Positions 2,293-64,000 of a DNA stretch of 64,000 nucleotides are shown piece after piece. The stretch is from Methanotrichaceae archaeon (GTDB lineage: Archaea; Halobacteriota; Methanosarcinia; Methanotrichales; Methanotrichaceae): contig CAWDLW010000023.1 of the NCBI GenBank assembly GCA_963803145.1, forward strand, positions 147,953 to 211,952. The letters run 5' to 3'. The position numbers were made by a program, and so were the translations under genes. Within the stretch, counting starts at the first letter, position 1. Each line of letters opens with the position of its first letter. The notes under the pieces were generated by a model. That model saw only the letters and a list, made by a program, of their open reading frames with translations. It made no database searches and had not been told where the DNA came from.

Positions 2293-2683
2293 ATAACACC
2301 TCCAATGTTCCCATTTCACTTTTCTTCTTCGGTCATTGACGAAATAAAACCGAAGTGCAACCTCCCGTACAGATCGCCCAAATCTTAAATACCATTTATT
2401 TTTACGGCAAACGACGAGATGATTTTCAGGGTTATAAACCTTACGGTAGTATACTAACACGCCGAGTTATTATCCCTCGCATCGTATGCTTTTTGGCCCA
2501 ATACATACAGATATTTCATTTATAAATTATTTTCAAGAATTCTAAGTGCATTATCTCAATTCACCAACTTATTCAGACTTAAATAGACCATATGGGCGCT
2601 GTCTCAGGTTCCCCCATCGTGAGGTATCCATCATGGGGCTACCCCATACATACCATACTTGCAATCATAAAGATTAAATATTA

Positions 2684-2990
2684 TTATGTGGCACTTTTAC
2701 AGGTACAAAATCGATATGCGTAAAGAAAAGTACTAAATTTGCTTCGCGACCTCAAATAAAAATATTGCTTGTCTTCTCTTTCCTTCATCATCTCCACCAG
2801 CACCGAAAACACGGCAGCTTCAAGGGGATCATCTATGGCATAAAATGCCTCGCCTGAGTACTTCTTGGCCATCTCCGCGAGCCTTTGCCCGTAAATTTGA
2901 TCTTCCCTTCTTCAGCGCCTTTGAAGCCTTCAGCCACCTGGCCGAGACATCCCTTGCGGTCATCCTAATGCTCTCAAAGCTTCTGCCCAA
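2684..2990 (-). pseudogene. small helical PolB2-associated-like protein (MGRSFES... family), frameshifted
   Basis: GGGTGAG then TTG 2990 reads MGRSFESIRMTARDVSARWLKASKALKK; one extra G near 2905-2907; continues EDQIYGQRLAEMAKKYSGEAFYAIDDPLEAAVFSVLVEM. Confidence 0.7.
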
Positions 2991-3615
2991 CTACTCACCC
3001 AGACAGAAGGCCACAGGCCACAGGCCACAAGCCATCAGATGCCGGCATTTGCTCTACAGCCCAATTCCTCTCCTTAAGTCTGCTCTTGATCATGTCCTCA
3101 ATATCCTCAGGCCTGAGCTTCCTGCCTATAATGATCTTAGCAATATTTATCCCAACGCTGACTGGAGCATTTCCAGCAGCAGCCGCTCCTAGTAAAAGTG
3201 CAAAAAAGATGGATATTGCCCAGCCCATCTTCAACATTAAACGCATATAATGATGTGGGTACAGGCCCTAGCATACACTTAAATGATCTGGCAGCTTGGC
3301 CAGGACCATTGAATACAATCAAAAAGCCTTCATCAAGGCCCGGGAGCTCTATCATCTATGCCTACAATAAAGCCGCTAGGCTTAATCCTAAAAAGCATTG
3401 GTCAATGAGGCTTTCCAAAAGTACAATCATCAACTTTGATTACCTTGTCACTTGATTATGAGAAAGCCTCCAATGTGGTCTGGCTCTTCTGTGTCCTCGG
3501 AATGGCCTTTGCTATAACTCTCGCCTCAGCCCTAAGCCCCAACGCAGGAGCTTGATGAATTGAGTATCCTGCAATAAAATCTTTCAGGCTGCTGCATAGG
3601 AACATTGGATGCCGC

Positions 3616-4455: not shown

Positions 4456-4638
4456 CTTATGATAATATGCTCGAAGGGTAATATAATAATCACTAATAGT
4501 GCTGCAGGTAAACTACTCCGGCCTAAAGACCAGAGTCTCCAGCCTTGAGTTTCTATGAGACTTCTTGACTTTGGATTATTCATGCAGGCTCTTCGATTTC
4601 ACTTGTTCTGGTAAAACAAGATAATGGAGTTGAGATAA

Positions 4639-4821
4639 ATGGCTGAAGAGAGAATGAGAAAAGAAGCAAAAGGCGAGACGACTGTTGCTGAGGCAGGCCA
4701 TAAGGGCGGAGAGAGAACCGCTGAAACCCATGGCAGAGAGTTCTACAGTGATATCGGACATTAGGGCGGTCAAAAAGTAAGAGAGCTGATTGAAGCTGGC
4801 AAAGATGCCGAGCGAAGATAG
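4639..4821 (+). pseudogene. KGG-repeat general stress protein (GsiB/Em-like) with in-frame TAG
   Basis: MAEERMRKEAKGETTVAEAGHKGGERTAETHGREFYSDIGH*GGQKVRELIEAGKDAERR*; TAG at 4762-4764. Confidence 0.75.
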
Positions 4822-62234: not shown

Positions 62235-62365
62235 AATAAATCAGTACTATAAATAGGTGGTGAAATGGTCAACATCAACCGGGTATCATAGATCTTGTTG
62301 GTGTTGTTCCCCGCTTGCGGGGTCAGGGGCAAGCCCGCGCGGCGACTGAGCGCGCTAGTAAAACC
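62235..62365 (+). repeat. dispersed structured repeat, copy 4
   Basis: Direct repeat of 57887-58004; 3' extension GCTAGTAAAACC shared with copy 1. Confidence 0.85.
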
Positions 62366-62411
62366 ATTAGTTTCCCATGAAAAACCTTCCTCAATTAAAA
62401 GAAATGGGGTG

Positions 62412-63671
62412 CTATCCACCCCCTACCGAATGTCTATTCTTCAAGTGATAAAAGGCGTCTACGATAGCAGCCACTCCATCCTTTAATCGCTCATCTTTGG
62501 ATAGATAGAGGAGGTCCCTTTTGACTGGTTTTGATGCAGCTGTAGTGCATTTGTTATCTTGATATAGCTCTTGATTGATCAGCAGATGATAAATTATTGT
62601 GATTAATTTCCGTGCTAAAGCAGTGATCGCTACATTGTAACTCTTTCTGGCCGATAATCTATGGAAGTACCTTGAGAGCTTGTTCTTGTTATTTCTCATC
62701 TTAGCTATCACTTGAGCTATCTCGACAAGCATAGTTCTGAGACTCTTGGACCCCTGTTTCGTAATACCACATTGCTTCTTTTTCCCTGCAGATTCGTGTA
62801 GTCCAGGAACCAATCCACACCATTTAGCGATTTGTTCTGGGGTTTGGAAATCGTGATAGTCACCGATTTCTGCCAAGATGGTCGACCCTGATCTAAAACT
62901 TATTCCTGGAATTGACATAACTATTGCCAGATCTTTAGCGCTTTTCTGAAATTTGCTAAGCACTTCAAGACTTGTTTTATCTATCTTCTTTTTCAGAAGA
63001 TCAAGGAGCTCTAGATTATCCTTAACAAGCATTCTCGAAGTATCATCAAGACCGTTTGCAAGAGCCGCTTTGATGACGTCTCGCTTTTTCTTGATCTTCT
63101 TTGAAGTGATTCTGTCCAGGATCGAGTCTGCATCCTTGCCTTCAACCAGGCCGTCCAAGATAATCCTGCCTGATTTACCAAAGATGTCTGAAATACAAGA
63201 ACTCAGCTTTATGCCGCAAAGTGCTAGATACTTATGAACTCTGTTTCTAAGTTGAGTTTGAGTCTTTATATATCCTGATCTGGCACGGGTCATCATTCTG
63301 AGGGCTCTATCCTCATTGGAAAAGACTCTTGATCTCTTGATTTTGCCATCCAAGCAGTTACCTGCAATCCTCTTAGCGTCATGAGAATCCGACTTATCCC
63401 CTACAAGTCCTTTGACCATCCATGGATTTGCTACAATTGTATCAATAGAGGGACTCAGGCAATCGTATACTGGAAACCAGTAAACACCTGTAGCTTCGAA
63501 TGCTACTTGCTCGCAATTATTGGCTATGAGCCAATTCCTGAATCTCTCTAGCTCAGAACGAGTCGTGCCAAACTGTTCCTGGATTTCAGTCCCATCTGCA
63601 TCTTCGATCGTGGCTACTATGAGATCTTTATGGACATCTGCTCCGCAAACTCTATCTCTTCGTTTGCCCAT
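62412..63671 (-). CDS. IS110-family transposase/recombinase
   Basis: DEDD residues (GADVHK, FEATG, KSDSHDA); SIPGI, CGLVP...ESAGK catalytic Ser; ALARKL. Confidence 0.95.
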   Translation of the reverse strand: MGKRRDRVCGADVHKDLIVATIEDADGTEIQEQFGTTRSELERFRNWLIANNCEQVAFEATGVYWFPVYDCLSPSIDTIVANPWMVKGLVGDKSDSHDAKRIAGNCLDGKIKRSRVFSNEDRALRMMTRARSGYIKTQTQLRNRVHKYLALCGIKLSSCISDIFGKSGRIILDGLVEGKDADSILDRITSKKIKKKRDVIKAALANGLDDTSRMLVKDNLELLDLLKKKIDKTSLEVLSKFQKSAKDLAIVMSIPGISFRSGSTILAEIGDYHDFQTPEQIAKWCGLVPGLHESAGKKKQCGITKQGSKSLRTMLVEIAQVIAKMRNNKNKLSRYFHRLSARKSYNVAITALARKLITIIYHLLINQELYQDNKCTTAASKPVKRDLLYLSKDERLKDGVAAIVDAFYHLKNRHSVGGG

Positions 63672-63679
63672 ATATGTCG

Positions 63680-63863
63680 CTATCCTGATATGGGCAGATG
63701 ATTAAGATTAAACCCTCATAAGGGGCAATTTCCCATACGCGTTCAACGACGCAGCCCCGTATTCGCGGGATTATTGGCCAGTTTTAGCCGCGAGATCATG
63801 ATCTCAAAATTAAAGCTGCCTTCACTGCCCATATCAGACTAAACATAGTTGGCCATGAATGTG
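63680..63863 (-). ncRNA. candidate IS110 bridge/seek RNA
   Basis: About 190-nt non-coding end closed by a perfect 13-bp stem (63685-63697/63825-63837) with internal hairpins. Confidence 0.55.
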
Positions 63864-64000
63864 AGGTTTTTCATCCGCCACGTATGACCCTTAAGGATCA
63901 TGGGCGTTTTAGCCCCAGAAGAAAGAGTAGAGCAAATGACCATTTTCATTCTTCGGGTGCGATTCAATCTAACGAACGAAATTTAATCGCAAAGGATACA

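Follow-up and report, generated by a model that had tools for sequence, protein, structure and literature searches.

A probable bridge RNA in the upstream end of an IS110-family insertion sequence from a methanogenic archaeon

In a methanogenic archaeon, an IS110-family insertion sequence very probably encodes, in its long non-coding left end, a guide RNA of the type known as bridge RNA or seekRNA. The element lies on the minus strand of a 64,000-nucleotide stretch of DNA from a Methanotrichaceae archaeon (contig CAWDLW010000023.1 of assembly GCA_963803145.1; the whole stretch is called the window below), and its left end contains a conserved structured RNA, one of the features by which bridge RNAs and seekRNAs are recognised. 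The predicted RNA, about 155 nt long (63839-63683, minus strand), is a three-way junction made up of a closing helix, a target-binding arm and a donor-binding arm, and three of its segments change across homologs together with the DNA that they would recognise. An earlier reading of this stretch, made from its letters alone (the sequence-only reading), had proposed a bridge-RNA candidate in this end, and the conserved fold and the three covarying guides bear out that proposal. By analogy with the elements IS621 and ISEc11, we infer that this RNA is transcribed and, bound to the recombinase, guides recombination: the DEDD recombinase would bind the guide RNA, which would bring the joined ends of the circularised element to the site GGGGCTAA-AA-CTAATGG (minus strand) within a repeat resembling repetitive extragenic palindromes (REP), and the recombinase would then exchange strands at the AA core.

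The recombinase carries both domains by which the IS110 family is defined (DEDD_Tnp_IS110 and Transposase_20), with PF01548 found at an E-value of 1.1e-18 (68 bits, cut-off 29) and PF02371 at 2.4e-23 (82.8 bits, cut-off 21.3), and it matches the NCBIfam model NF033542, 'IS110 family RNA-guided transposase', at 252.4 bits (cut-off 140). The IS621 transposase in the PDB is a distant relative (E-value 1.9e-12), and the nearest plasmid-borne relatives, about 35% identical, are labelled just 'IS110 family transposase', a label that is uninformative as to IS1111 or IS110 grouping.

The boundaries of the element follow from setting six occupied copies beside three empty sites. On this comparison the element ends on the left at 63906 (junction ...CTAAAA/CGCCCATG, the slash marking the boundary), and the right terminus is at 62373, the last base of the left donor, with the core at 62372-62371 (junction CATGGGAAA/CTAATGG). 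Empty sites in the genome read GGGGCTAAAACTAATGG, and GGCTAAAA is followed either by CTAAYGG-type sequence at an empty site or by CGCCCATG at an occupied one; the A-run alone is common to target and element, and there is no target duplication beyond it. Insertion without target-site duplication at one short shared core is characteristic of the IS110 family, and the homologs agree in this respect; because homologs with other targets show it so, the C at the left junction is assigned to the element and the shared core to AA. The sequence-only reading had placed the near end at 63881-63886, and the true terminus lies 20 nt further out; with the near end misplaced, the earlier reading missed the main target guide, GGCUAAAA(C), at 63789-63781. 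The non-coding left end (63906-63672) is 235 nt long and lies upstream of the gene, and the right end (62411-62372, with 62371 as the second core base) has 40 nt. Subterminal inverted repeats of 11 nt, 100% complementary, occupy 62377-62387 and 63864-63874, and an exact subterminal repeat of at least 10 nt is present in 46 of 56 distinct left-end/right-end pairs, both ends changing together (ATGAAAAACC versus ATGGAAAACCAC). The source genome holds nine copies of the element, every one of them in the same REP-like repeat.

Homologs were collected from species genomes, where the scan gave seven loci (Methanothrix and Methanotrichaceae at 82-64% identity, Methanocella and Methanoregula at 39%), and from metagenome contigs scanned with protein alignment, of which the best 80 of 523 relatives (59-95% identity) were kept. 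The 86 homolog loci and the window yielded an alignment of 68 distinct left-end RNAs, reaching from the 5' arm of the closing helix to just beyond the start codon, and the counts below refer to it unless another sample is named. Loci with less than 200 nt upstream, exact duplicates, L052 and L071 (unrelated upstream sequence) and L056 stand outside this alignment, the 5' arm of L056 having one change (GATATGGTCAG) that would break one pair; L025 was entered by hand. Thirteen more distant copies, outside this alignment, were oriented and compared in layout.

The left end (63905-63650) folds with a z-score of -3.5 relative to dinucleotide shuffles. The perfect 13-bp stem enclosing 127 nt that the sequence-only reading had described is indeed present as the inverted repeat CTGATATGGGCAG/CTGCCCATATCAG at 63685-63697 and 63825-63837, and it forms the closing helix P1. 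Seven of its 13 pairs have changes on both sides, mostly owed to L025 and L026, and distant copies are closed by UUGGGCAG/CUGCCCAA and UAGGACAG/CUGUCCUA. When a hand-drawn fold of six helices (the closing helix, the target-arm base, the target-loop hairpin and three donor-side helices) was laid over the 68 left ends, 92.0% of cells were paired and 17 of 34 pairs changed on both sides, against 4.4 in shuffles (none of 500 as high); with the partners slid by 1-3 columns, at most 46% of cells were paired. Within the target-arm base, pair 24-67 is UA in 24 sequences, CG in 10 and AU in 6, and is unpaired in 28, the window element included. An outer helix joining the segment upstream of the 5' arm to positions -9 to -5 before the AUG appeared in the computed fold and in two clades, but was inconsistent across the homologs and was set aside. 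Inspection by eye, with no formal test, showed no conserved TATA-like box upstream of the 5' arm in the close family.

The donor arm calls for a choice between two folds. Its four G/C-rich strands (63713-63769, columns 82-142) permit two mutually exclusive pairings, either two local hairpins or two long-range helices. In the long-range fold 93.2% of cells are paired overall and 14 pairs show compensatory change (0/500 shuffles), pair 96-128 being AU in 40 sequences and GC in 21, whereas pair 82-96 of the local-hairpin fold fails in 43 of the 68. On the alignment, then, the long-range fold appears better supported than the local hairpins A and C, which could still form because the four strands are mutually complementary. 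The double pairing is kept in distant relatives, for example in L138 (UUGCC/AAGGC/GCCUU/GGCAA); it may reflect a switch between conformations or the chance recurrence of GGG/CCC.

In the system as set out by Durrant et al. (2024, PMC11208160), a left guide is identical in sequence to the left half-site and core, and a right guide is the reverse complement of the core plus right half-site. We scored each candidate guide against its DNA out of 6, using distinct guide/DNA pairs only and 5000 permutations (the flank of L021 was set by hand). The left-target guide scored 4.48/6 against the left flank, compared with 2.38 after permutation (n = 52 distinct pairs, 0/5000). In the window element 8 nt of this guide match the left flank and core (GGCUAAAA), and across homologs the guide follows the left flank in at least eight classes: GGCTAAAA (the window element), CCCTAAA, GGCCTAAA, ACCTAAA, ACTGAAA, TATATAAA, ATTGAAA and TAAAAAAA.

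The left-donor guide behaves likewise with respect to the right end of the element, scoring 5.36/6 against 4.14 permuted (n = 11 distinct pairs, 0/5000). Left-donor guides that match their own right end include AUGUGAAA, AUGCGAAA, AUGAGAAA, AUACUAAAA, AUAUUAAA and AUGCUAAA, with distant clades in agreement, and the segment that follows hairpin B tracks the right end across clades (ATGGGAAA, ATGTGAAA, ATGCGAAA, ATGAGAAA, ATACTAAAA and ATATTAAA). It was this guide that the sequence-only reading had picked out as TTTCCCAT at 63729-63736, identical to the far end at 62371-62378; the match is that of a true guide, since it covaries with the right end and core. The other short match of that reading, between CATACG and CGTATG (63881-63886) and likewise offered as a possible guide, fared differently: both sequences are present, and CATACG overlaps the TTTCCCAT copy, but CGTATG is not at the near end, and the two do not covary, other clades having CACACG while the RNA keeps GCGUAUG or GCGCAUG.

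The third guide, for the right side of the target, lies on the 5' strand of the target loop, where CUUUAAUU is the complement of the core and right flank. Its score against the right flank was 3.31/6, compared with 2.30 permuted (n = 54 distinct pairs, 0/5000), with matches of 6/6 in L033 and 5/6 in L021/L034, L045, L058 and L024; the match is also strong in L142, in which UACUUAUUU stands opposite the flank ATAAGTG. Among the distant copies the layout is kept with other guides, the left-target guide GAUAAAAC equalling the flank and the left-donor guide AUGCUAAA the right end. The right-target guide (63815-63806) precedes the left-target guide (63789-63781) in the RNA, an order that agrees with the mark of the IS1111 group, namely a top-strand complement 5' of a bottom-strand match (PMC11187229).

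Might the left end be no more than a structured 5' untranslated region, or a set of protein-binding DNA sites, its short matches being leftovers of the terminal repeats or chance? AUGGG/CCCAU motifs do occur five times in the left end and at both termini, so that some short matches could derive from the terminal inverted repeat CCCATG/CATGGG. However, the left-target guide matches host DNA outside the element and shifts with the target in all of the classes listed above; it is therefore beyond the reach of element-internal repeats to explain these matches. The permutation results (0/5000) and the compensatory changes that preserve the helices likewise speak against such an origin, and we regard it as highly improbable.

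Several observations nevertheless weigh against assigning a guide RNA to this end. In the window element itself the right-target guide fits just four of the six non-core positions of the genome's empty sites. The permutation significance is overstated because the tests ignore the relatedness of the sequences, although the signal of the putative guides does rest, despite that relatedness, on many separate guide/target classes. A search of Rfam at E-values up to 10 returned only a chance match to SNORD112 (21 bits; gathering score 58). No RNA run is listed as carrying the element, and a sequencing run of doubtful type (guessed to be RNA, 0.06 of words) gave only four low-depth contigs of relatives, corresponding to 63391-63771, which speak neither for nor against transcription. 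Finally, in a scan of about 65 related sequences we found no RNA column covarying with positions 2, 4 and 5 of the left terminus, as would be expected of a right-donor guide.

This last point bears on a variant of the assignment in which the guide RNA is genuine but the left terminus is recognised as donor through protein-DNA contacts, by way of the subterminal repeats or the terminal hairpin (a 'three-guide' system). In the better-supported donor fold the strand at the position of the right guide is just 1-2 nt long, which favours this variant, as do the lack of a covarying RNA column for left-terminus positions 2-5, the joint change of the subterminal repeats in 46 of 56 pairs, and the terminal hairpin, which homologs retain with different sequence (GAGCCC..GGGCTC, GTGCC..GGCAC and GAACC..GGTTC, seen by eye and uncounted). 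Against this, the search covered related sequences with strong phylogenetic structure, mutual information in the scan was dominated by phylogeny, and the left terminus is mostly conserved (CGCCCATG), so that a guide against it would covary little. In addition, the left terminus finds its complement in the AUGGGC of the 5' arm and the AUGGG of the donor guide, which could act as discontinuous guides. We consider the three-guide variant a credible minority alternative.

The complement of the left terminus occurs in the RNA only as AUGGG(C) stretches, which are invariant while the terminus drifts. The AUGGGC of the 5' arm and the copy at the start codon were tried as right-donor guides and rejected for now, given that they stay constant while terminus positions 2, 4 and 5 change and that L025 and L026 are unmatched. 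Other candidates (the linker AUCAU, the loop of hairpin B, GAACGCG and the segment upstream of the 5' arm) were, as judged by eye, inconsistent across clades. The features of the element that carries the probable guide RNA are collected in Table 1.

Table 1. Positions of the element, its gene, its ends and the parts of the predicted RNA within the window.
Feature	Position	Strand	Sequence	Remarks
Whole IS110-family element	62371-63906	minus		1536 bp including one copy of the AA core; six occupied copies versus three empty sites
Transposase/recombinase gene	62412-63671	minus		DEDD type, 419 amino acids; PF01548 and PF02371
Left terminus (right donor)	63898-63906	minus	CGCCCATGA	from junction comparison; CCCATG is the inverted repeat of right-end CATGGG
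Left-terminus hairpin	63884-63901	minus	ATGATCC TTAA GGGTCAT	inverted-repeat pair
Left subterminal inverted repeat	63864-63874	minus	ATGAAAAACCT	begins 33 nt inside the left end
Closing helix P1, 5' strand	63825-63837	minus	CUGAUAUGGGCAG	94.9% paired over 68 homologs
Target-binding arm	63776-63820	minus		closed by GGCA (63820-63817) and GGCC (63779-63776); columns 21-24/67-70 89.3% paired
Candidate right-target guide	63806-63815	minus	CUUUAAUUUU	5' strand of target-binding loop; complementary to core and right flank
Hairpin within target-binding loop	63792-63805	minus	GAGAU CAUG AUCUC	columns 36-39/48-51 93.8% paired; 3 of 4 pairs change on both sides
Left-target guide	63781-63789	minus	GGCUAAAA, then C	3' strand of target-binding loop; same sequence as left flank and core
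Donor-binding arm	63713-63769	minus		outer helix CCC/GGG, inner helix GGGGC/GCCCC, hairpin GCGU..ACGC (63752-63739); donor guide in inner loop
Left-donor guide	63729-63736	minus	AUGGGAAA	the TTTCCCAT of the sequence-only reading; same sequence as right end and core
Closing helix P1, 3' strand	63685-63697	minus	CUGCCCAUAUCAG	can alternatively pair with start-codon region
Copy over start codon	63665-63673	minus	AUAUGGGCA	9-nt copy of part of the 5' arm; alternative partner of P1 3' strand
Right end	62371-62387	minus		subterminal repeat AGGTTTTTCAT (62387-62377), left donor CATGGGA (62379-62373), core AA (62372-62371)

The sequence-only reading had gone further and inferred that folding of the guide RNA is coupled to translational control, as one arm of the closing stem can pair over the start codon instead. 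The pairing itself stands: TGCCCATAT spans the ATG (63671-63669, minus strand) and has its complement in the arm at 63688-63696. Pairing of the 3' arm with the start region has a duplex energy of -14.1 kcal/mol, against -5.9 +/- 2.2 in 500 shuffles, none of which was as low. When the 5' arm is present, the AUG is predicted to be free with a probability of about 0.9, which falls to 0.02 when the arm is absent; the isolated hairpin is predicted at -13.5 kcal/mol. The 3' arm would accordingly have two partners, the 5' arm, leaving the AUG free, and the start-codon copy, hiding it. A switch of this kind, coupling the folding of the guide RNA to translation, seems to us unlikely, and so does the related proposal that the transposase is made solely from transcripts with a complete guide RNA.

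The predictions within the closer relatives are divided. Over 66 homologs (L025 and L026 left out of the predictions and duplex shuffles), occlusion of the AUG without the 5' arm was predicted in 36, and the fraction of shuffles as favourable was at most 0.01 in 21, mainly those with a GGN second codon (29 of the 66); residue 2 of the transposase is unconstrained at the protein level (G, S, K, N, T and R occur). A bacterial precedent also exists in ISPpu9, an IS110-family element inserted in REP sequences, in which, according to Gomez-Garcia et al. (2021, PMC8450116), a structure in the long 5' untranslated region occludes the start of transposase translation; there it is the ribosome-binding site that is masked, and an antisense small RNA opens the structure, whereas the candidate occluding strand here would be one arm of the guide RNA's closing helix, in one clade only.

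The evidence across homologs runs the other way. The alternative helix shows no covariation, with 81.7% of cells paired against 81.5% in column shuffles (131/500) and all covariation measures equal to the shuffles. Two central pairs are broken in many of the homologs (162-191 in 28/68, 163-190 in 38/68), as a consequence of second codons that read GGC, AGC, AAA, AAC, AAU, ACA or CGC. Without the 5' arm the AUG is predicted to be free in 30 of the 66, at probabilities of 0.89-0.92 where the second codon is AAA, AAC or AAU, and L039, which lies inside the GGC clade, has lost the pairing in two places. The 11 distant relatives tested for the duplex are all at chance level, with shuffle fractions of 0.10-0.74 (L145 and L148, which have no recognisable gene start, were left out). 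Moreover, transcripts that lack the 5' arm are hypothetical; for a transcript that begins at the left terminus, prediction has the AUG partly paired elsewhere (probabilities of 0.2-0.24 for U and G); and the closing helix itself explains the conservation of the 3' arm. An alternative helix that served translational control would be conserved or would covary across homologs, and this one is neither.

The alternative pairing is a real property of the window element and its nearest clade, rather than a conserved part of the system, and it may silence translation of transcripts without the 5' arm. Of the coupling proposed by the sequence-only reading there remains a thermodynamically plausible helix that is at chance level outside one clade, and a role in translation is for us a clade-limited and doubtful possibility. 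It is conceivable, though we would not expect it, that in the clade of this element the guide RNA licenses the translation of its partner, the complete folded RNA sequestering the 3' strand of the closing helix. If that were true, read-in or internally started transcripts would fold the 3' strand onto the 9-nt mimic at the AUG and stay silent, and the recombinase would be made only alongside an intact guide.

The reach of the RNA family was examined with a covariance model built from 45 of the RNAs, the kind of check that the sequence-only reading had asked for. The model recovers nine of the nine copies in the source genome and, of 151 genomes of the class, recognises the RNA in 55 (45/74 in the same family, 8/67 in a second, 1/4 in a third, and 0/3 and 0/2 in two others). 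On the Methanoregula contig of L026 a second, divergent guide-RNA copy (4557-4697, minus strand, 79 bits) is present about 2.6 kb from the first, so that two related elements neighbour each other there.

Some relatives have a different kind of repeat as their target. A clade with the left-target guide AUUGAAA is inserted in CRISPR arrays, exactly at the 3' end of the repeat (...GGATTGAAA/C); its members, all from metagenomes, are L061, L063, L065, L066, L067, L075, L076, L077, L081, L084, L095 and L096. In 12 or more of the 86 loci the element is flanked, on one side or on both, by repeats with a period of about 73 nt (repeat pattern matched at least three times), as for example in L066 at 65-968 and 2610-3585, and the two CRISPR repeat families found at insertion sites share just the ATTGAAAC end. 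The right flank in this clade is a spacer, and the right-target guide therefore cannot match it in general. In L100 the element has the array on one side and an upstream coding sequence, possibly a cas gene, on the other. The literature that we searched contains no description of IS110 elements aimed at CRISPR repeats; the CRISPR-repeat-binding protein Cbp1 is reported to bind the IS110-family element ISC1229 in Sulfolobus (PMC10883916).

Other relatives are found in or beside copies of themselves. In L083 (1649-1832) the sequence after the right end is that of another copy's target arm (...CCAGCCAATATCCC), and in L089 (200-330) the left flank consists of another copy's hairpin and left-target guide; in these arrangements the guide's own DNA thus acts as target. 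In L094 (1463-1520) a right end runs into a second left end (GGGAAAC/GCCCATGTGCC); this represents either a tandem copy or an assembled circle junction.

The REP-like target repeat of the source genome is about 130 nt long (62235-62371 and 63907-63969 in the window, which terminates at the contig end) and has a G+C-rich palindromic part (...GCGCGCTCAGTCGCCGCGCGGGC...CCCCGCAAGCGGGG...). It occurs in about 40 further places in the genome, with dozens of partial copies. In two of the nine element copies, other DNA of about 1.1-1.2 kb breaks the sequence (G000:C15:16085-18780 and G000:C25:147828-150605), near transposase codon 355 in the former and about 636 nt into the gene in the latter. Their open frames have 366 and 238 amino acids, against 429 in the other copies, and the interruptions may be nested insertions.

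How does this system compare with those already known? The bridge RNA of IS621 represents the IS110 group (Durrant et al. 2024, PMC11208160; Hiraizumi et al. 2024, PMC11208158), and IS621 shares with the present element a DEDD recombinase with PF01548 and PF02371, a guide RNA located upstream of the gene, within the long left end, distinct arms for target and donor, long guides that combine the left-target or left-donor sequence with a 2-nt core, and insertion into a repeated extragenic element without target duplication. By contrast, the present protein is only distantly related to that of IS621, its core is AA, its target-loop guides are in reversed order (the right guide on the 5' strand and the left on the 3' strand), its 13-bp closing helix unites both arms in a three-way junction, and no right-donor guide was found in the sequences scanned; the 11-bp subterminal repeat also differs from the 2-3 bp reported for the IS110 group.

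The second reference point is the IS1111 group, with the seekRNAs or bridge RNAs of ISEc11, ISPa11 and ISKpn4 (Siddiquee et al. 2024, PMC11187229; Durrant et al. 2024). IS1111-type elements have subterminal inverted repeats, and the donor-binding bases of their RNAs lie in multiloops (Durrant 2024, PMC11208160); the RNA described here likewise has its donor-binding bases in or near a multi-branch structure. The perfect 11-bp subterminal repeat is in the range of 10-15 bp given for the group, and within the wider limits of about 7-17 bp by which the group is recognised. The differences concern the ends: the RNA and its non-coding region are upstream (235 nt) rather than downstream (40 nt), as they would be in the IS1111 group; the extensions beyond the repeats are about 32 nt on the left and 6 nt on the right, core included, compared with a reported 7 and 3 bp; and the left repeat is behind the terminal hairpin, starting 33 nt from the terminus and not 7 nt. 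Rare IS1111-type elements with an upstream non-coding region do exist, for example ISMtsp17 (Siddiquee et al., PMC11187229).

The layout of the present element is therefore IS1111-like in its subterminal repeats and guide order, yet encoded upstream as in the IS110 group, which confirms the mixed anatomy that the sequence-only reading had noticed; the RNA may be an IS1111-type guide that has moved to the upstream end, apparently without a right-donor guide. Bridge RNAs have been predicted in 85.7% of the IS110 and 93.0% of the IS1111 elements of ISfinder by Durrant et al. (PMC11208160), so that the kind of system is already known. The literature searched offered, beyond the papers cited, nothing specific on archaeal bridge RNAs or on occlusion of a start codon by a bridge RNA. 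We regard the RNA family as a well-supported addition to a known kind, with an unusual mix of traits, that may already stand in Supplementary Table 5 of Durrant et al. or Supplementary Fig. 2 of Siddiquee et al.

For the annotation of this genome, the nine copies of the element mark REP-like sites and contig breaks of the assembly. For methanogenic archaea, the analysis provides a bridge or seek RNA family backed by covariation, together with a working covariance model. The closing helix beside the start codon and the right-donor guide that was not found are concrete, testable departures from the IS621 model. For the family as a whole, the element indicates that an IS1111-style RNA can occupy the upstream end, which bears on the movement of such RNAs between element ends in the course of the family's evolution.

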